64,000 bases of DNA from the IMG/VR virus record IMGVR_UViG_2767802354_000003, positions 4,685 to 68,684 of that record. The stretch is one strand, 5' to 3'. The DNA is from a virus. Taxonomy: Duplodnaviria > Caudoviricetes. How positions within the stretch are numbered: position 1 is the stretch's first letter; each line of letters begins with the position of its first letter. The translations under genes were made by a program, and so were the position numbers. This document shows, in pieces, positions 17,499 to 36,550 of this stretch. The notes below the pieces were generated by a model. The model saw nothing but the letters and a program-made list of their open reading frames with translations. It searched no databases and was not told where the DNA came from.

Positions 17499-19211
17499 CT
17501 AGATGCCGACTCCACTGTCATAGATGCTGGCCTCCTGCTCGGCCTGCTTGCCAGGCATTGCGCGGCCGATGGCCATGATCAGTGCTACGGCTCCGTCAAT
17601 CTTGTTGTCGTTGCCTTGCTTGATGGGGCGCACGATGTCGTCGTTGCCGACCAGGTGTTTGCCGATCACATTGCCCATGCACCAGGTCATCAGCGGGTTG
17701 CCGTCGTGATGAAAGCGCCCGGACATGATGGCCGCCTCGAGCTCCTTCATCGGGTCGCTCATGTTGGTGTAGTTCTGCACGATGGTGATCGGAAGCAAGC
17801 CTTCATCGTCGAGCTGGTGGGCCAGGTTGGTGGCGCCGTGCGGATCCATGGGCGATGCTTCAACAGGATTTAACCTTGCGGCTTCCTTGGCTTCTTCCAG
17901 AATCTCGCGGTAGTCAATCTCGGCACCGTCGGTGGTCAGCAGATGACCTGTGTTGACCCACTTCTGCAAGCGCTCGGCCATCCGCCGGTTGTCGCTGTTG
18001 TTGACCGTGTCCTCTGGCACCCAGAAGCGCGGAGCGATGCTGTAGTAGTGCCGCTTTCCATCGATGTCGCGCCAGAACAGCCGGGCCATGCTGTTCATGT
18101 CCAGCTTGCGAGCCAGGTCGAACGACAAGACCACCGACTGGCCTTCGAAATCAGCCAGATTCAGTGTGTCGTCTTCACAAGACTCCCACTGAGTCATGTT
18201 GAAGTAACCAGTTTTGGCGGTTACCCAGAGACCCAGGTGCTTGGTTTTGAAGGTATTCGTGAAGCGCGCCTGCTGGATGGCTCTTCGCTGCTGACTCTCC
18301 AAGTACTCTTGATAGACTGACACACCGATATTGGGGTTGGCCTTGGCTAGCACCTTTGGATCCGTCCAGTCATCCTCTGGATCAACCGTCCAGATCCAGC
18401 CAAACAGCTCGTCGTTAGGCACCGTACCGTCGAGCATTTCCACAACTTCGCGCCGCTTGTCGTAGCACGGACCTTCGATGTTGTAGCCAGCCGTGGTGAT
18501 GATGAACATCAGAGGCTGTTTGCGCGCGCCCATGCCAGTGAGCATGGTGGTGTAGAGCGCATCGCTGTCGTGCTCGTGGTACTCGTCAACGATGGAGCAC
18601 GAAGGACTGGCACCGTCACCGGGGTTGCCGATGATGGGCTCAAAGCGGCTGCCATCGCCTGGCTTGTTCAAATTGGAGGCATTGACCTCGATGCCGGCAG
18701 CTTCCAGCAGCATGGGAGAGCGCATCGCCATGAGACGCGCTGGCCGAAACACCTCCCATGCCTGCTTTTCTGTAGTGGCCCCGGAGTAAATCTCGGCGCC
18801 AAACTCGTTGTCGGCGGCAAACATGGCCAGACCCACGCCGGCTGCAATGACGCTCTTGCCGTTCTTGCGATTAACCTCCCAGTAGCTTTCACGAAAGCGG
18901 CGAAGACCATCCTTCTTGCGCTTCCATCCAAAGGTGCACGCCAGACCGAACTTCTGCCACGGCTCAAGGGTGATCAACTGGCGCTTGAAGCCCCATTCGC
19001 CCTTGGTGTGCGGCAGCAGCTCAATCAGAGCAATCTTCTTCTGCGCCTCCTTCGCATCAAACTCATAGGGGTACGCTTTGCTTTTGCTGGCCAGCAGATC
19101 ATCCAGATGACGCTGGCAGGCCTGCCGGACATATCGACACGCCGGAATCTTGCCGGCAACAATGGCCTTAGCGAACTTGTTGGCTGCATCCACCGCCGGA
19201 TATTTAGCCAT
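17499..19211 (-). CDS. terL: Terminase large subunit
   Basis: VNRKNGKS Walker [10 protein letters not shown] Walker [12 protein letters not shown] nuclease motif. Confidence 0.96.
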
Positions 19212-19686
19212 TGATGACCCCTGCAAACGGGTTGTCGCTCTGCTTCTGTTTACCTGTGCCCATCATTCGCTGTCGACTGGACGGGTCCAGCCCCAGCATT
19301 CCGCCATAGCTGGCCATCATGGCCGTCGCCTCTTTGAGGGCCGTCGCGGCGGGGTTCTTGATCACGCCTCCCATGGCCCCAGAGACCGTCACTCCGTTCT
19401 GGGCGATATCCGCCTGGGCCATCCGAAACTGGTCATAAGCGGAGCAGTACACCTCAAGGTTCTGAATATCTGTCGCCGCCAAAATGCGCTCTTTGCACAA
19501 CTGCGGCGCCACGGTTTCCCAGAGCATCCGGCCGTTATCCCCCATCCAATCCGGGCAATCGATATTCAGAACCAGCTCGAAGTCTGGTTCAGATTTATTG
19601 AGAGCTCGCTTGCCTGGATTACCAGCCAATAGCTTCTTTGCCGTAGGTTTGGGGCGACGGCCAGAGCGCCCAGCAGCACCTGCCAT
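19204..19686 (-). CDS. terS: Terminase small subunit, P27 family
   Basis: GRRPKPT...[14 protein letters not shown] and LGLDPSSR motifs. Confidence 0.93.
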
Positions 19687-26259: not shown

Positions 26260-26511
26260 TCACTCCACCTCCTTGGTTGAGGTGGATGGCTGCGCCAGCT
26301 CAGGCCAAATCTGGGTGTACTGGTCGGGGAACAGATCCCGCCTAGTCACAGTAGTGAGCTTTTCAAGGCTTGCAGCGCAAGCAGCAGGGATCGGGCGCCG
26401 TCCGCTGATCCACTGGGATATCTCGGAAGGGGATTTGCCTAGGGCTCGCGCCAGAGCAGTCGGGCCACCTGCCTCGGTGCTGGCTCGCTTTGCGAATGCT
26501 GCATGTTTCAT
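26260..26511 (-). CDS. cro: Cro-like HTH repressor
   Basis: GGPTALARALGKSPSEISQWISGRRPIP HTH, divergent from cI. Confidence 0.88.
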   Translation of the reverse strand: MKHAAFAKRASTEAGGPTALARALGKSPSEISQWISGRRPIPAACAASLEKLTTVTRRDLFPDQYTQIWPELAQPSTSTKEVE

Positions 26512-26520
26512 TCATAAAAT

Positions 26521-26581
26521 TTAGCATAGCTAATCATAAAAATCAAGCCACGCTAAATTCATTAATTATTAGCATCGCTAA
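26521..26581. promoter_or_regulatory. OR operators and pR
   Basis: TTAGCATAGCTAA (26521-26533), CAAGCCACGCTAA (26544-26556), TTAGCATCGCTAA (26569-26581); - strand TTGATT-N17-TAAATT just upstream of cro. Confidence 0.75.
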
Positions 26582-26582
26582 C

Positions 26583-27341
26583 ATGAAAGAATGGACTACT
26601 GAGGAAGAGGCTGCAAACCTGCGTCGCCTTCTTACCGGCGTTAAGAACAAGGCTCAGTTCGCCAAGGACAATGGAGTTCCAGGCGGTGCGTCCATGCTTT
26701 CCCAACACCAAAGTGGGCATCGCCCCATCAGCTTGGATGCGGCCAAAGCGTATGCAAAAGGGCTGGGTATCGGAATCGGAGAGATTGCACCTCGCTTTGC
26801 AAAGCTGGTGTCTGACGTCTCGGAGCTTGCTCAGCCAGCGCCTTACCCAAGGGGTCACGAGATAGACATGTCAGCGTACAGTGCTGTTCCGATGTATCAC
26901 GCACCTGACGCTGTAATTGTTCCTCTGCTCTCTAACTGCGGCAGCATGGGCCCCGGTTCTGAGTTGCTGGAGTCAGATGTCATTGTGGGTGACTTGGCCC
27001 TATCCCCACACTGGATCAATCAGCAGATCAGGCCCCAGAACCCGCAAGAGCTGCGCTTCATACACGCATATGGCGACAGCATGGCCCCAACATTCACAGA
27101 TGGCGATGTCCTGCTCGTTGACACAGGGCTTAGTGCACGTGACCCCAGTTCACGCGAAGGCGTCTACGTTTTGCGGGCGAATGATCGAACTTTCATCAAG
27201 CGTGTCACCCCCACCTTTGACGGCAAGCTGCAGGTGACCAGCGACAACCCCAGCGCCAAGACTGTACAAACACTGAATGGCGATCATCAAGTGGATGTGG
27301 TTGGTCGGGTGGTGTGGGCCTGGAATGGGAAAAGGCTGTAA
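26583..27341 (+). CDS. cI: CI-like repressor (HTH + S24 peptidase)
   Basis: N-terminal HTH; GDSMAPT..DGDVLLVD, FIKRV and VVGRVV S24 motifs. Confidence 0.93.
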   Translation: MKEWTTEEEAANLRRLLTGVKNKAQFAKDNGVPGGASMLSQHQSGHRPISLDAAKAYAKGLGIGIGEIAPRFAKLVSDVSELAQPAPYPRGHEIDMSAYSAVPMYHAPDAVIVPLLSNCGSMGPGSELLESDVIVGDLALSPHWINQQIRPQNPQELRFIHAYGDSMAPTFTDGDVLLVDTGLSARDPSSREGVYVLRANDRTFIKRVTPTFDGKLQVTSDNPSAKTVQTLNGDHQVDVVGRVVWAWNGKRL

Positions 27342-28857: not shown

Positions 28858-28920
28858 GTAGCAGCGCTTCATTTTATATTTAGCAAAGCTATTGCTTATT
28901 TAGTTTAGCAAAGCTACATT
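28858..28920 (+). promoter_or_regulatory. OL operators and pL promoter
   Basis: TTAGCAAAGCTA at 28880 and 28905 plus a degenerate copy at 28858; TTGCTT(28892)-N17-TACATT(28915). Confidence 0.75.
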
Positions 28921-29224
28921 ACATCCATCGCAGCAAAGCGATGGGTGCCAAGTGATCGAGCCAGCACCTCAGGTCCTTAAAAAGCCAGAGATTCAATGCA
29001 CGTCGTGAGACACGCTGCGCCCCGATGACTTACCGGAACGCGCCGCGACTCTGCCGCCCCGAAGCGGTGGATGGTGCTAACCGGCGCAGATAGTGATCTG
29101 CATAAAGCTGCCAGAGCGAAGCGCAAGCCAGTGACAGTGGGAGATATGCGCCGCCACCCGGAGCGCATCCGGGGTTCAAACGAAAGCCTTGCTAGCAGCG
29201 CGTTCGTTTGAGTACAGTGAATCC

Positions 29225-29404
29225 ATGACACGCATAAACACCACCGAAATTTGGGAGCGACACGGCTACAGAGTCGAGCGCATCGAGCAAGTCATGGGCG
29301 CTCCACAGCGCAATATCTATGGCCCTGATGGCGTGCTGCTGATCGAGGACGCTGAGTACACCCAGGAGACAGAAGCGCTGCGCGACCTCGGCTTCATCGA
29401 CTGA
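29225..29404 (+). CDS. First pL gene, hypothetical (59 aa)
   Basis: MTRINTTEIWERHG...LRDLGFID; homologous fragment at 63918-64000. Confidence 0.7.
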   Translation: MTRINTTEIWERHGYRVERIEQVMGAPQRNIYGPDGVLLIEDAEYTQETEALRDLGFID

Positions 29405-30724: not shown

Positions 30725-30907
30725 ATGTCAGTAAGCCGCATCCCATCTTCATTCCTGAGGGTTTGGAGAACAGTCAGACGAGTCTTCGCCAGAGGCGAGC
30801 CACTCCCCAGTCCACCCAACATCGAACAGTGCGGACCTCCTGAAAAAGACAAGAGGAGGCAAGAGGAGAGGCAATCGCGCATGCGCCATAGCTATCGATA
30901 CTGGTAG
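30725..30907 (+). CDS. Microprotein A2 (60 aa)
   Basis: GGAGGTCTATATG start context; paralog of A1. Confidence 0.6.
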   Translation: MSVSRIPSSFLRVWRTVRRVFARGEPLPSPPNIEQCGPPEKDKRRQEERQSRMRHSYRYW

Positions 30908-31258
30908 CAAGAGTGTTCGACAGCTCCCACGATTACGTGGCTTCATTTTCAACAGCCACCTTCTAAGGTGGCTTTTTTGTGCCCGGAGATCTTGAGATGT
31001 GAGCATTCAGCCAACATGTGCCATACATGCGCCCTCTCCCGCAGGGCTATAGCGGGGCCATCAAGAAAGAGCGCGGCAATGAAAAACTGCAACGTGGGTG
31101 GAGTTGGGTAATCCGCTCTTTTTCTTGATGGTGCCGGGGGTCGGCTCCCCGGCTCTTACAAAGCAAGCCTGAAAGGGCCTGGCTGGAAAACTGCAAGAGG
31201 GTAATCGCACTGGCCACAGGTGCCCATCATGACCACCCCGGGAAAGTAGCGGGGGCTA

Positions 31259-31364
31259 TCTGGCGTGACTGCTCGAGCAAGTACGGCAACTCAGGAATGG
31301 GCCTGGGTTGGCGGCAGTCACGAGCACGGCGCATCCGCGTCGTGGCGACAGTGGTCACGCCAGA
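31259..31364 (+). ncRNA. Putative structured RNA, family X copy 1
   Basis: 15-bp closing stem with G-U pairs plus two internal hairpins; homologous to copies 2 and 3; strand inferred from G-U pairs and operon direction. Confidence 0.6.
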
Positions 31365-31570
31365 GGGTTTAACAACTTTTCTTAACGTAAATAAGCTTCA
31401 GATGTGGTTCGTCGCGGCGAGCGAATGCGACAAAAGCACTCATTGCGCAGCATCAGACGATAGGCTGTGAATTTATTTCAGTAACATCCGCCTTAGGCCC
31501 AGCTATTAGGACGTAGGTGGAGCCTCTTACGCCACCCACAAGGTGGCTTTTTTTGTCCTGAATTCAGGGC

Positions 31571-31682
31571 CATCCGGCGTTACTGCTTGAACAGGCATGC
31601 CCCCAAGAATTTGCCTGGGTCGCCGTCTATTGGGAGCGCGGCGCGGCTTCCGCGTCGTGAGCGACAGCGGTCACGCCAGATG
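31571..31682 (+). ncRNA. Putative structured RNA, family X copy 2
   Basis: CATCCGGCGTTACTGCT/AGCGGTCACGCCAGATG closing stem; 10-bp inner hairpin. Confidence 0.55.
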
Positions 31683-31763
31683 ACGTAGAGCCCGTTTATG
31701 AGCCCACACACATCTTGATTCCGTCACTCTCTTTGGGCAAAATTTGCGTCACGTACCTGTTTT

Positions 31764-31876
31764 GCCGGGCCTGGGGTCACAGACTCCTTTCACTTCCGCA
31801 ACTTGCCCAGGCATGACCAAATAGGTCGCCGGCTTTTTATTCGTGCCCGCAGCAACTGCTTGCGGGCTTTTCTTTT
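31764..31876 (+). ncRNA. Putative sRNA, family Z copy 1
   Basis: GCCGG/CCGGC, GCCTGGG/CCCAGGC, GACC/GGTC three-stem junction plus terminator. Confidence 0.6.
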
Positions 31877-32050
31877 GCCGCCGGCAGTTCAAGCTAAAAA
31901 ACAGGATACACATAGTGGAAAACAGGCCCCCTAGATGCGCACCACCACAGCCGCATGAGTAGACATGGGGCTATCCAGTTTGGTGTAAGACGAGCTCCTA
32001 TTGATCACCCAAAAAGCATCGTGCAGAATTCGACGCCATCTACCTGTTAC

Positions 32051-32163
32051 GCCGGGCCTGGGGTTAACTCCTCCCTCCCTTTCTGACCTCTTCCCCAGGC
32101 ATGGCCCGAAAGGGTCACCGGCTCTTTACTCAAGCCCGCAGCTACCGCTCGCGGGCTTTTTTT
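32051..32163 (+). ncRNA. Putative sRNA, family Z copy 2 (CU-rich anti-SD loop)
   Basis: Same junction; loop CTCCTCCCTCCCTTTCTGACCTCTT; GAAA tetraloop; terminator. Confidence 0.65.
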
Positions 32164-32179
32164 GCCCACAGGAGACCAC

Positions 32180-32236
32180 ATGCACTCAAGTCCAATCACC
32201 ACCCGCACGACAAAACTGCTACTTGCCAAGCAATAG
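32180..32236 (+). pseudogene. Truncated paralog of the 45-aa TM peptide (TGG to TAG)
   Basis: MHSSPITTRTTKLLLAKQ* then ALTGLGL, aligning to MHSTQTTAYNTKLLLAAQWALTGLGL. Confidence 0.6.
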
Positions 32237-32467
32237 GCGCTCACAGGCTTAGGCCTCGCATGTACCTTCCCCCGCAGGGCTATAGCTAGACCACATCAAA
32301 TAGTAAATATGAATTAATTCTTGAACACCAATAGAAAATGTTGACAACATCAGATGTTAGTGAAAGTATTCACCCTAAGTAAGTCTTTGAATGAGCGCTG
32401 CTCGTGTGTGAGTGAAGCCTCTTTAAGCCACCCTCCGCAGGGTGGCTTTTTTTGCACCAAAGTCAGT

Positions 32468-32580
32468 GCCATCCGGTGTGACCACTCGAGCAGGTACGGC
32501 AGTTCAGGAATAGGCCTGGGCGGGCGGCAATTAGGAACGCGGCACTTTGCGTCGTGGCGACAGTGGTCACACCAGATGGC
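32468..32580 (+). ncRNA. Putative structured RNA, family X copy 3
   Basis: 18/19-bp closing stem with compensatory changes relative to copy 1. Confidence 0.6.
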
Positions 32581-32589
32581 AAGTCAGGT

Positions 32590-32850
32590 TTACTTCTTCC
32601 CACCACCGACAAGGTAGACGTTGCCCTCGGCCACGTTATTGAGAAGCTCGCGATACGCATTCACCAAGTGATCGCGGCCAAGCCTGAACTCGGGATCCGT
32701 TCTATCAGGTCCGTCCTGATGCTTAGCATCCAGCTGTGCAGCGCGCAGCTCTCTCGCCGCTTGATGGGCAGTCTCGCGCGGTAGCGCCTTGACGACTGCC
32801 GTCAAGATCATCGACAGCGCAGCAAATGCGCCAGATTCCTCCTGGGTCAT
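32590..32850 (-). CDS. Hypothetical protein (86 aa), antisense insert
   Basis: AGACTGGAGGT RBS context; helical protein. Confidence 0.6.
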   Translation of the reverse strand: MTQEESGAFAALSMILTAVVKALPRETAHQAARELRAAQLDAKHQDGPDRTDPEFRLGRDHLVNAYRELLNNVAEGNVYLVGGGKK

Positions 32851-32887
32851 GAGGCACCTCCAGTCTGATGACCCATTCTAGTTTCCA

Positions 32888-32997
32888 GCCGGGCCTGGGG
32901 TTTATCTCCTCCCTCCCTCTCTGACCCATTCCCCAGGCAGACCCGAAAGGTCACCGGCTCTTTATTCAAGCCCGCAGCAAACGCTCGCGGGCTTTTT
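32888..32997 (+). ncRNA. Putative sRNA, family Z copy 3
   Basis: Same junction; loop ATCTCCTCCCTCCCTCTCTGACC; terminator. Confidence 0.65.
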
Positions 32998-33019
32998 CGT
33001 TACCCACACAGGAGATTCC

Positions 33020-33157
33020 ATGCATTCGACTCAAACCACCGCCTACAACACAAAGCTGCTGCTCGCGGCGCAATGGGCTCTTACCGGCCTCGGCCTGTTC
33101 TGCCTGGTCGGCGCAGCCGTGGTGATCGCACTCACGCCAGAACCCTGGCCCCTCTGA
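33020..33157 (+). CDS. Small single-TM peptide (45 aa; not in ORF track)
   Basis: CAGGAG RBS; WALTGLGLFCLVGAAVVIAL hydrophobic segment. Confidence 0.65.
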   Translation: MHSTQTTAYNTKLLLAAQWALTGLGLFCLVGAAVVIALTPEPWPL

Positions 33158-33190
33158 GCATTCAACCTTGAAAACTGACAGGAGAGACTC

Positions 33191-33388
33191 ATGCTGAAGA
33201 CGATTGTCGACTCCCTGCTGGTCATCGTTGGCGCAATGCTTCTCGCAGCCTGGCTGTCCGCGCCTGATGCCCAAGCCGATGAACCCAAAACCTTCACCCA
33301 AAGCCTGCGCGATGAGTTCGCCTGCCCGGGCATGCATGCCGAGTGGCTGGACGAGAAGACCGTGCAATGCCTGAAAGAGCAACCGTAG
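33191..33388 (+). CDS. Small membrane-anchored/exported protein (CPGM motif)
   Basis: N-terminal hydrophobic helix; CPGM..W.....V.C.KE shared with 33614-33883. Confidence 0.7.
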   Translation: MLKTIVDSLLVIVGAMLLAAWLSAPDAQADEPKTFTQSLRDEFACPGMHAEWLDEKTVQCLKEQP

Positions 33389-33613
33389 ATTGGCCATGAC
33401 ATGACCTTTTTGCAGGAAGTCTTTTCGCTCTTCTTGCACATAAGGATAGAGAATAGGCATTGCAAAATTCATTGCAATAGTTTGTCTTCAGACAGAGCTT
33501 TTGCCTTTCGCTGCGCAGACGTCCATTGGAGGTCATCAACATGCGAGCTCTAAGGCGCCAAAGGGTGCAATAGCGGCCGTTGCGTTCGCATCCATCAACA
33601 TAGACTGAAGCGT

Positions 33614-33883
33614 ATGGCAAAGCCACCAATCCAGCTTGAGTACCTACCCAAGAGGCGAAGCAGCAGGAACCACCTCCTCTGGAGGGCAGGATTCTTCTTG
33701 AGCGCCTCGGCGGTTCTGCTGACTTGCCTGGTCATGGAAGGCTGTAAGCCCGAATCGGGAAAGAAGTTTGAGGAAACAACTGCTGCATTCAAAAATTCAG
33801 CGCTTAGCGCCTGGCATTGCCCAGGAATGACAGCCATTTGGGTCAGCGAAAATATTGTGAAGTGCGTCAAAGAAGAGCGTTGA
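33614..33883 (+). CDS. Paralogous small membrane protein (CPGM motif)
   Basis: Hydrophobic segment; HCPGMTAIWVSENIVKCVKE. Confidence 0.65.
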   Translation: MAKPPIQLEYLPKRRSSRNHLLWRAGFFLSASAVLLTCLVMEGCKPESGKKFEETTAAFKNSALSAWHCPGMTAIWVSENIVKCVKEER

Positions 33884-33952
33884 GCTCGAAAATTTAAAAA
33901 TGCAAAAAGCCCACACCTTTACAGATGTGGGCTTTTTTACGCCAAGTAAAAA

Positions 33953-34204
33953 TTACTTGCGTGTGTTGGCTAGAGATACAGAGATAACTCGACCACCCAA
34001 TGACTGATCATTCAGGGAGTCGATCGCTGTCTTTGCTTGGGCAGCAGTGCCCATTTCAACAAAGCCGAAGCCGCGCGATTGACCTGTATTGCGATCCATT
34101 ATGACTTCAGAGGAAATAACATCCCCACAGCTTGAAAAATGTGATTTCAGTGTTTCGCGATCGATGCCATAGCCAAGATTGGAGACGTAGAGATTGCTTT
34201 GCAT
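33953..34204 (-). CDS. RRM (RNP-1) RNA-binding protein, copy 1
   Basis: RNP2 LYVSNL and RNP1 RGFGFVEM. Confidence 0.95.
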   Translation of the reverse strand: MQSNLYVSNLGYGIDRETLKSHFSSCGDVISSEVIMDRNTGQSRGFGFVEMGTAAQAKTAIDSLNDQSLGGRVISVSLANTRK

Positions 34205-35130: not shown

Positions 35131-35359
35131 AGAGCCTCCACAGAATTGCCTTTGCCCGCCATTGAGCGGGCTTTTTTATGAGTATCACCAGCATGACAAA
35201 CACCACCACTGACAAGCGTTGCGGAAGCTGCGGCGCCCCTCTTCCTAAAGACTTCAAAGAAGAGCAGGGTCAACCACTTCCTTGCGGCCACTAACAGCCA
35301 CAACTTCCCCAACATCAGAGCCCGCCAATCAGCGGGCTTTTTCTATTTCTGGAGTCTCA

Positions 35360-36550
35360 ATGTTCAAGAGCATGACCATTTACCGCCTTGCCAAGAGCTG
35401 GCAAAGCGATCTGCAGGCGCTGAAAAATTCCCTGCAAAAGACGGTGTTTGAAGAGTGCGGCGCGACCCAAGAGCGCTCCGTGGGCTGGGTTCCGCCGCGC
35501 GGCGAGCAGCACGGCCCGCTGGTCGAGTCCGTGGCCGGCCAGTGGGTCATGCGCTTCATGACCGAGGCCAAGGTGCTGCCGGCCAGCGTGCTCAACCGTA
35601 AGGTCAACGAAAAGGCCGAGCACATCGAAAAGACCGAAGGCCGCAAGCCCGGCAAGAAGGAAAAGCGCGAGCTCAAGGACGAGGCCAAGCTGGACCTGTT
35701 ACCCATGGCCTTCACCAAGCAGGGCAGCATGTGGGTCTGGATCGATCCGCAGGCGCGCACCCTGGTGCTCGATACCAGCGCCCAGGGCCGCGCCGACGAG
35801 ATGGTGACGCTGCTGGTCGAAGGCCTGCCCGGCTTTGCCCTGGCCCTGCTGGATACCCAGACCAGCCCACAGGCCGCCATGGCGCACTGGCTGATGACAC
35901 AAGAGCCGCCCGCAGGCTTCACTGCCGACCGCGAGACAGAGCTGAAAGCCGCCGACGAGTCCAAGGCCGTGGTGCGCTACGCACGCCACCCGCTGGATAT
36001 TGATGAAGTCCGCCAGCACATCGAGCACGGCAAGCTACCCACCAAACTGGCCATGACCTGGGACGACCGAGTGAGCTTTGTACTGACCGAAGGCCTGCAG
36101 ATCAAGAACATCACGCTGCTGGATGCTGTCATGGATGGCAACAGCAAGGACGATGGCGGCTTCGATACCGATGTGGCCATTGCCACCGGCGAGCTGTCGC
36201 GCCTGATTCCCGACCTGATCGAAGCATTGGGCGGCGAAGGCCGCACCCGCCTGGGCGACCTGCCCGCCTCGCTTCAGAACGCGCCTGCTGCGAAAACTCT
36301 GCCAGCAAGCACTGCCAGGACCGCGCCCGCCCCGCACTGCGAAGCTGCTGGCGACGGTCGGGACCCGCTCTATGCCGAGGCCGTTGAACTGGTGCGCAAG
36401 GACCAGAAGCCAAGCGTCTCCTATGTGCAGCGCAAGCTGTTGATTGGCTACAACCGGGCCGCCGCCTTGCTGGAGCGCATGCAGGCCGAGGGACTGGTGT
36501 CGCGCATGGATGGCAGCGGCAAGCGCACGCTTTTGACGCCGCCCGCCTAG
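35360..36550 (+). CDS. rdgC: RdgC recombination-associated protein with C-terminal FtsK-gamma-like winged helix
   Basis: SVGWVPPRG, KVLPASV, GKLPTKLAMTW RdgC motifs; C-terminal DPLYAEAV...SVSYVQRKLLIGYNRAAALLERMQAEGLVS. Confidence 0.9.
   Translation: MFKSMTIYRLAKSWQSDLQALKNSLQKTVFEECGATQERSVGWVPPRGEQHGPLVESVAGQWVMRFMTEAKVLPASVLNRKVNEKAEHIEKTEGRKPGKKEKRELKDEAKLDLLPMAFTKQGSMWVWIDPQARTLVLDTSAQGRADEMVTLLVEGLPGFALALLDTQTSPQAAMAHWLMTQEPPAGFTADRETELKAADESKAVVRYARHPLDIDEVRQHIEHGKLPTKLAMTWDDRVSFVLTEGLQIKNITLLDAVMDGNSKDDGGFDTDVAIATGELSRLIPDLIEALGGEGRTRLGDLPASLQNAPAAKTLPASTARTAPAPHCEAAGDGRDPLYAEAVELVRKDQKPSVSYVQRKLLIGYNRAAALLERMQAEGLVSRMDGSGKRTLLTPPA

Follow-up and report, generated by a model that had tools for sequence, protein, structure and literature searches.

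Three copies of a short repeated unit lie on the plus strand of the early region of a Comamonas prophage, and the question that this locus raises is whether these units are RNA genes and, if so, on what their products would act. The stretch of DNA that we analyzed (the window, 64,000 nucleotides) is part of an IMG/VR provirus of 68.7 kb that is rated complete. It encodes a large terminase (17499-19226, minus strand), a CI-like S24 repressor (26490-27341, plus strand), and an RdgC-type recombination protein (35282-36550, plus strand). The repeated units, which we named family Z and of which the provirus under study carries 3 copies, sit within the early, accessory region between 28.4 and 35.3 kb. 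The longest ORF in this region has at most 168 amino acids, and the region itself is a mosaic of repeat families. Terminator-like sites are frequent there (22 found versus 7 expected), and most of them are on the plus strand. Scans for tRNAs, tmRNA, and tandem repeats gave no matches, and a 2-kb query against the published phages in INPHARED gave no match at an E-value of 1e-5.

Each Z unit is approximately 115 to 128 nt long and consists of a Y-shaped core formed by 3 helices (P1, P2, and P3), an unpaired C/U loop of 29 to 30 nt, a U-rich linker, and an intrinsic terminator. A preliminary description of this DNA had placed copies at 31764, 32051, and 32888 and had drawn for them a P1/P2/P3 fold followed by a terminator; we recovered all 3 copies at these positions on the plus strand, and each of them folds in this way, with minimum free energy (MFE) z-scores of -3.1 (Z1), -5.7 (Z2), and -5.2 (Z3). 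In the 3 copies P1 has 5 bp, P2 has 7 to 8 bp and closes the loop, and P3 has 4 to 6 bp. The Z1 core spans positions 31764-31833, with P1 formed by 31764-31768 and 31829-31833, P2 by 31769-31775 and 31806-31812, and P3 by 31815-31818 and 31824-31827; its loop occupies 31777-31805, and the U-rich linker (31834-31844) precedes the terminator (31845-31875). The Z2 core (32051-32122) has P1 at 32051-32055 with 32118-32122, P2 at 32056-32063 with 32093-32100, P3 within 32102-32117, the loop at 32064-32092, and the terminator at 32134-32163. In the Z3 core (32888-32958), P1 pairs 32888-32892 with 32954-32958, P2 pairs 32893-32900 with 32931-32938, and P3 pairs 32940-32943 with 32949-32952; the loop is located at 32901-32930 and the terminator at 32970-32997. 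Behind each core the terminator hairpin ends in a U run and is preceded by a U-rich single strand, as occurs in all 3 copies and in most relatives. The 3' halves of Z1, Z2, and Z3 are 79% to 92% alike. Their loops are of two kinds, as the preliminary description had recognized: Z2 and Z3 carry a loop of the CUCC-UCCC-UCCC type, and Z1 carries a different CU-rich loop. With a covariance model built from Z relatives (R1), the 3 copies scored 82 to 90 bits (89.9 for Z1, 81.6 for Z2, and 86.9 for Z3; E-values of approximately 1e-19 to 1e-21), against a chance level of at most 23 bits determined on 80 GC-rich control genome loci.

The structure of Z is under selection. Among 81 Z copies, 66 of them distinct, changes on both sides of a pair were found in 12 of the 17 pairs, distributed over P1, P2, and P3, and 92% of the cells in the alignment pair; this alignment was fitted to the model and thus favors the structure, but the compensatory types are still plain in its rows. 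None of 500 shuffles and no slid register reached the observed level. G-U wobbles and the terminators fit the plus strand as the RNA strand. The core of the loop is nearly constant across the genus while the stems vary, which is the pattern expected of a seed. The sequences of P1 and P2 are almost invariant, an unusual degree of conservation that could reflect a protein partner.

To describe the distribution of the family we used DNA pattern searches and R1. The pattern search located Z-like units in 16 viral contigs, and the related proviruses carry 2 to 4 copies each. Most matches of the loose DNA pattern in genome contigs were rejected as chance matches in GC-rich genomes, since they scored at most 23 bits with R1; true copies were clearly separated from them (40 to 92 bits). 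In reference genomes, R1 detected Z in 44 of 77 Comamonas species genomes, with 1 to 10 copies each; C. thiooxydans DSM 17888, for example, has 9. Among 151 genomes drawn evenly from the large betaproteobacterial family to which the genus belongs, only 3 contained Z. A patchy, multicopy occurrence of this kind is that of a mobile element whose host range is at the genus level. The Z copies that we examined have phage genes next to them, such as those for a RecE-like exonuclease and for a PAPS reductase of phage type, or the small-peptide early region that is also present in the window. A terminase lies within 10 to 40 kb of some Z loci; this link to prophages was drawn with one terminase family, which succeeded for only some of the loci.

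Promoter-like sites precede 2 of the copies on the plus strand. Upstream of Z1 we found a -35 hexamer TTGATT (31715-31720) and a -10 hexamer CAAAAT (31738-31743) separated by a 17-nt spacer (site 31715-31743), which predicts a transcript start at approximately position 31750. Upstream of Z2, hexamers at 32001-32006 and 32024-32029 are also separated by 17 nt (site 32001-32029), and they lie at the same distance from P1 as those of Z1; a Z2 transcript would start near position 32036. These hexamers match the consensus at only 8 of 12 positions, which is under the threshold of a generic promoter scan. In 7 copies from different genomes (Z1, Z2, and 5 relatives) the -35 and -10 hexamers are fixed in place and the spacers between them differ. 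Z1 and Z2 probably have their own σ70-type promoters. No convincing σ70 promoter was recognized upstream of Z3, which is separated by 38 nt from the start of a divergent ORF of 86 amino acids. This ORF (32590-32850, minus strand) has a strong ribosome-binding site (RBS) and no match in Pfam or PHROG, and the same ORF-Z layout occurs in 2 relatives (L012 and L159). When contigs assembled from RNA-seq libraries (3 studies of one organism and 1 run of unknown library type) were compared with positions 30900-34000, they covered the region including Z3, but whole genomes assemble from these libraries and the contigs end in repeats, so that this coverage is no evidence of transcription. Z is predicted to be transcribed.

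To find sequences with which the loop shared by Z2 and Z3 could pair, we searched the host genomes for its complement. Only Z genes and one further locus, which we named H, were matched. On the strand opposite to the match, the predicted fold of H (for example L175:965-1060, minus strand, at G001:C37 near 389,400, with relatives in L178-L249) is a Y that has a CU loop of 25 nt and whose closing helix leads into a U run; its z-score is -3.7 versus -0.6 for the other strand, and the RNA would be approximately 95 nt long. H is single-copy in 74 of the 77 Comamonas genomes and, with a model of H built in this analysis (R2), present in one copy in 102 of 151 genomes across the family (101 of 150 without the unpublished genome G147). 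Of its 23 pairs, 19 covary, and the loop is invariant. H has no match in Rfam, either in Comamonas or in other genera. H is predicted to be an uncatalogued core sRNA, Y-shaped and single-copy, in Comamonas and the greater part of its family.

Over an 18-nt core (32905-32922), the Z3 loop is identical to the loop of Comamonas H, and the Z2 loop has 13 nt of this core. R2 detected Z3 at 26.3 bits (E-value 4e-5) and Z2 at 15.4 bits, and did not match Z1; the Z3 match is local (32894-32937), and no Z copy matched R2 over its full length, only the CU hairpin being covered. Conversely, the Z model does not detect H. Both RNAs have a Y shape with a closing helix, a CU loop of 25 to 30 nt with the identical 18-nt core, and a U-rich 3' end. 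They differ in that a short hairpin precedes the CU hairpin in H, the closing helix of H is itself the terminator, and H is single-copy and vertically conserved. In 2 non-Comamonas genomes, the loops of Z and H agree over 21 nt in one and show no such agreement in the other. Identity between low-complexity CU loops could be partly the result of convergence on an anti-Shine-Dalgarno (anti-SD) sequence. The preliminary description had noticed that the loops are CU-rich but had missed that those of Z2 and Z3 duplicate the invariant loop of a core host sRNA. This duplication points to a defined set of partners shared by the two RNAs.

We then compared Z with known RNA families. Rfam 15 gave no gathering-level matches in the whole window. 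The preliminary description had pointed to the Betaproteobacteria toxic sRNA family (RF02278), but membership of Z in it is not supported: with permissive filters the RF02278 model scored 15.9 to 18.1 bits on the Z copies (E-values 1.4 to 4.8; gathering cut-off 50 bits), and almost all of this score came from the terminator. RF02278 comprises the Burkholderia "double-hairpin" sRNAs ncS03/05/27/62 (PMC5688073, PMC4603805), which are 57 to 92 nt long and have CU-rich unpaired stretches (PMC5688073); overexpression of ncS27 slows growth (PMC5688073, PMC4603805). These sRNAs resemble Z in that they occur in betaproteobacteria, are present in several copies per genome, have CU-rich single strands with complementarity to RBSs, and carry a terminator at the end. 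However, Z is a three-way junction of approximately 70 nt with one long loop, a linker, and a separate terminator instead of a double hairpin, and it is carried by phages and found almost only in the genus Comamonas. The cuckoo RNAs of Alphaproteobacteria (RSs0680/CcsR1-4 and SmelC397/NfeR1) consist of 2 to 4 adjacent hairpins with the motif CCUCCUCCC in each loop, and are chromosomal, with a conserved genomic context reported for most members of the RSs0680 type (PMC4615179). The CU-rich loops of both the cuckoo RNAs and the Burkholderia RF02278 sRNAs are reported to cover RBSs (PMC5688073, PMC4615179). Z resembles the cuckoo RNAs in its constant loop motif, freely changing stems, tandem or multiple copies, and presumed RBS occlusion, and the Z2 and Z3 loops hold 8 of the 9 bases of CCUCCUCCC. 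Unlike the cuckoo RNAs, Z is carried by phages and places the motif in a single loop that the closed junction surrounds: each unit has one CU loop, and the P3 loop (4 to 5 nt) is without the motif.

Sibling CU-rich sRNAs have also been described in Neisseria as NmsR (PMC5688073). Like Z, they belong to a betaproteobacterium, lie in tandem as homologous copies, and have unpaired CU-rich stretches matching the regions of RBSs. NmsR, also called RcoF, differs from Z in being chromosomal and in its fold, and no link to phages has been described for it. Regulatory sRNAs encoded by prophages include DicF and IsrK/C4 (P1-like and Gifsy-type elements). As is the case for Z, these are small RNA genes in prophage early or immunity regions, and the known ones act on host or phage mRNAs. 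To our knowledge, no prophage sRNA of the DicF or IsrK/C4 type has been described as a multicopy copier of a core host sRNA seed. IsrK and C4 have been noted as phage-related RNAs (PMC4603805). The Rfam models of DicF and of the IsrK/C4-type prophage sRNAs had no match in the window, and neither did those of the alphaproteobacterial families. Several features of Z are those of Hfq-type sRNAs, namely a terminator with a U tail after a U-rich single strand, and a conserved single-stranded seed with covarying stems, and Z may depend on a chaperone. The nearest known kind are the CU-rich SD-blocking sRNAs (PMC5688073, PMC4615179), whose working features Z has, but Z falls outside every catalogued family.

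The reading that we favor, and to which we give slightly better than even prospects, is that the Z units are sibling sRNAs borne by the phage that would use the seed of a host sRNA to occlude purine-rich ribosome-binding regions in trans. The three-way junction would hold open the pyrimidine loop of 29 to 30 nt. Because Z2 and Z3 use the seed of H, their targets are probably those of H, and they would most likely pair in trans with the purine-rich, SD-like mRNA sites that H recognizes, blocking the initiation of translation there. The H regulon could in this way be imposed or amplified by the prophage, either in lysogens or once it is induced. We infer the occlusion itself from the sequence and from related families; action in trans, the identity of the targets, and any benefit to the phage would be part of the same proposal. 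What we retain of the preliminary description are structured RNA units that the phage carries in several copies, that expose an anti-SD-like loop, and that have terminators of their own; the specific pairing with a transmembrane (TM) peptide gene is not retained. Nor is a general "toxic" shut-off likely, because up to 10 copies of Z are tolerated in host genomes and the phage's own genes use ordinary SD sequences.

Z1 may extend this scheme with a second seed. Its divergent loop has 8 nt in common with the 3' tail of the host 16S rRNA, the sequence of which we confirmed in 2 host genomes, and a seed resembling the anti-SD tail could give Z1 a wider range of targets. The sequence of the Z1 loop was not found elsewhere in 5 host genomes. 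Searches for long sites complementary to the shared-loop seed and to the Z1 seed found none in the window or in 3 to 5 Comamonas genomes, and an 11-nt complement was also sought 2 to 12 nt before an ATG; in all these searches, only the RNA genes themselves and locus H were matched. We hold more tentatively, at somewhat less than even credence, the broader idea that temperate Comamonas phages reproduce, in several copies and on an independent scaffold, the seed of a family-wide core sRNA of the host to hijack or overdrive one of its post-transcriptional regulons, with a second, phage-specific seed that mimics the 16S anti-SD tail. If this were true, it would represent viral mimicry of a host sRNA seed in two previously uncatalogued RNA families. 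SD-blocking CU-rich sRNAs are known in several bacterial groups, and little is known about the use of this layer of control by phages. Z is a multicopy phage RNA family that is widespread in one genus and has a loop identical to that of a family-wide host sRNA, and neither of the two is in Rfam. If the targets of Z and H coincide, the phage would tap a host regulon by copying an sRNA seed, and the host sRNA, the phage mimics, and the natural seed variants would provide experimenters with ready-made mutants. If they differ, two well-supported structured RNA families are still added to the catalogue.

Among the alternatives, the one that survives best is that Z is a decoy or sponge, the pyrimidine tract of which would titrate a host factor with affinity for C/U-rich single strands or for the 3' tail of the 16S rRNA, without pairing with mRNAs. 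We consider this unlikely as a whole. The factor might be Rho, ribosomal protein S1, Hfq, Era, or another one, perhaps the same that H binds. The loop of 29 to 30 nt is G-poor and rich in YC dimers, the 8 nt of 16S tail in the Z1 loop and the near invariance of P1 and P2 agree with such a role, the searches for long RNA targets found none, and multiple copies suit titration. However, nothing points to a protein of this kind, a full Rho-binding site would be longer than the loop, and the related CU-loop sRNA classes for which experimental data exist act by base pairing (PMC5688073, PMC4615179).

Further readings, which are less likely, give a role to the genes downstream of Z. Directly 3' of Z3 there is an RBS followed by a gene for a 45-amino acid peptide with a single TM segment (33010-33157, plus strand), a neighbor that is a candidate target at most. 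This peptide matched no Pfam or PHROG family, and a homologue in another prophage early region does not adjoin a Z copy there. A decayed duplicate of the RBS and peptide gene lies 3' of Z2 (32172-32246, plus strand); it has a premature stop after 18 codons, and its homology fades approximately 70 nt beyond the stop. Z2 with its downstream sequence is thus a duplicate of Z3 with the peptide gene, in which the RNA part is approximately 90% identical and the ORF part approximately 70%. There is no gene behind Z1, and the genes downstream of Z differ among relatives, with a near-identical copy in L012 preceding a different RBS and gene. The RNA was kept while the peptide ORF decayed, Z1 lacks a gene, and the genes of relatives differ, which indicates that the RNA is selected independently of the peptide. 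This counts against a dedicated role of Z as a leader or as a toxin-antitoxin (TA)-like RNA.

In the first of these readings, Z would act in cis as a leader or attenuator, in the manner of a riboswitch, a put-like element, or an attenuator that depends on a protein, and would control read-through of the early operon into the small genes downstream. The order of structured RNA, terminator, RBS, and ORF at Z2 and Z3 is the one expected of such a leader, and the early operon, with its many terminators, runs on the strand of Z. We nevertheless regard it as improbable. In addition to the missing, variable, or decayed downstream genes, the junction and the terminator stay separate domains in both the MFE and the centroid folds, no alternative anti-terminator pairing was seen, promoter hexamers are conserved just upstream, and the same loop occurs in the stand-alone core sRNA H.

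The second reading is the narrower one of the two that the preliminary description had proposed, in which Z acts on the adjacent TM peptide as an antitoxin-like or immunity RNA dedicated to it, following type I TA or c4-icd logic. The location of Z3 directly upstream of a small hydrophobic peptide gene suggested it, as did the duplication of the Z unit and the peptide gene as one block and the 7-nt complementarity between the Z3 loop (32904-32910) and the RBS of the gene (33010-33016). This complementarity is real, but it amounts to little beyond any pair of anti-SD and SD sequences, and the Z2 loop has only approximately 5 nt of complementarity to its own RBS. Moreover, Z is not antisense to the peptide gene, the gene is often elsewhere or absent in relatives, as it is after Z1, and the Rfam models of C4 and isrK had no match. 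With plain SD pairing of 5 to 7 nt and a decayed gene after Z2, a dedicated pairing of this kind has little probability.

Finally, Z could be a selfish or neutral hairpin-plus-terminator cassette that travels with the repeat element Y and spreads among Comamonas phages by recombination without any regulatory role, a highly improbable reading that draws on the dispersed, multiple copies, the long inverted-repeat element Y upstream of many of them, and the mosaic of repeats in the region, and that is countered by the compensatory changes in all 3 helices together with the constant loop, which indicate selection on the RNA, and by the fact that Z itself is not flanked by terminal inverted repeats or target-site duplications.

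The surroundings of Z provided several additional observations. Candidate explanations of Z or Y as attC-like sites, MITE ends, put/nut antitermination sites, or σ54 promoters were rejected because the sequence lacks the motifs that define them. The early region opens (28880-28930) with repeated palindromes that resemble operators, and in related prophages 3 CTGT-N8-10-ACAG boxes of LexA or repressor type lie directly 3' of a Z copy (L138, minus strand, at about 1345-1420, and L144:1650-1720). A small hairpin motif at 29150-29190, in the leader of the ORF starting at 29226, resembles hairpins located directly 5' of Z in one group of genomic copies (L138, L155, L161, L170, and L173). Five small ORFs between 29441 and 30745 each start within a conserved hairpin that contains the RBS and the start codon, and 3 of them also have a common conserved upstream block of approximately 50 nt (repeat families D2-D5 and D7), so that this segment resembles a cassette of duplicated small genes that share an element for translational control. 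Another repeat, D13/I1, combines a C-rich block with an inverted repeat of 24 bp behind it (31026-31136 and 32259-32293 in the window) and is also found in the early regions of other Comamonas prophages (L138 and L144), where it adjoins Z copies. At the far end of the region, the 422-amino acid RdgC-type protein (35282-36550, plus strand) fuses an RdgC domain with an FtsK gamma (KOPS-binding) domain at its C-terminus, two domains that are not usually combined in a phage recombination gene.

The Y element is approximately 125 nt long and has terminal inverted arms of 18 to 20 bp and conserved internal hairpins. Its copies in the window are located at 31246-31370, 31562-31688, and 32460-32586, and in other genomes it sits 11 to 90 nt upstream of many Z copies. 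The patterns of mismatches and wobbles in Y favor neither strand as RNA. Two look-alike units that end in a terminator, which we named X (31465-31555 and 32341-32455), each lie directly 5' of a Y copy. The second one has a perfect -35 hexamer (32341-32346) approximately 80 nt 5' of its terminator, and the X units are candidates for further small RNAs.
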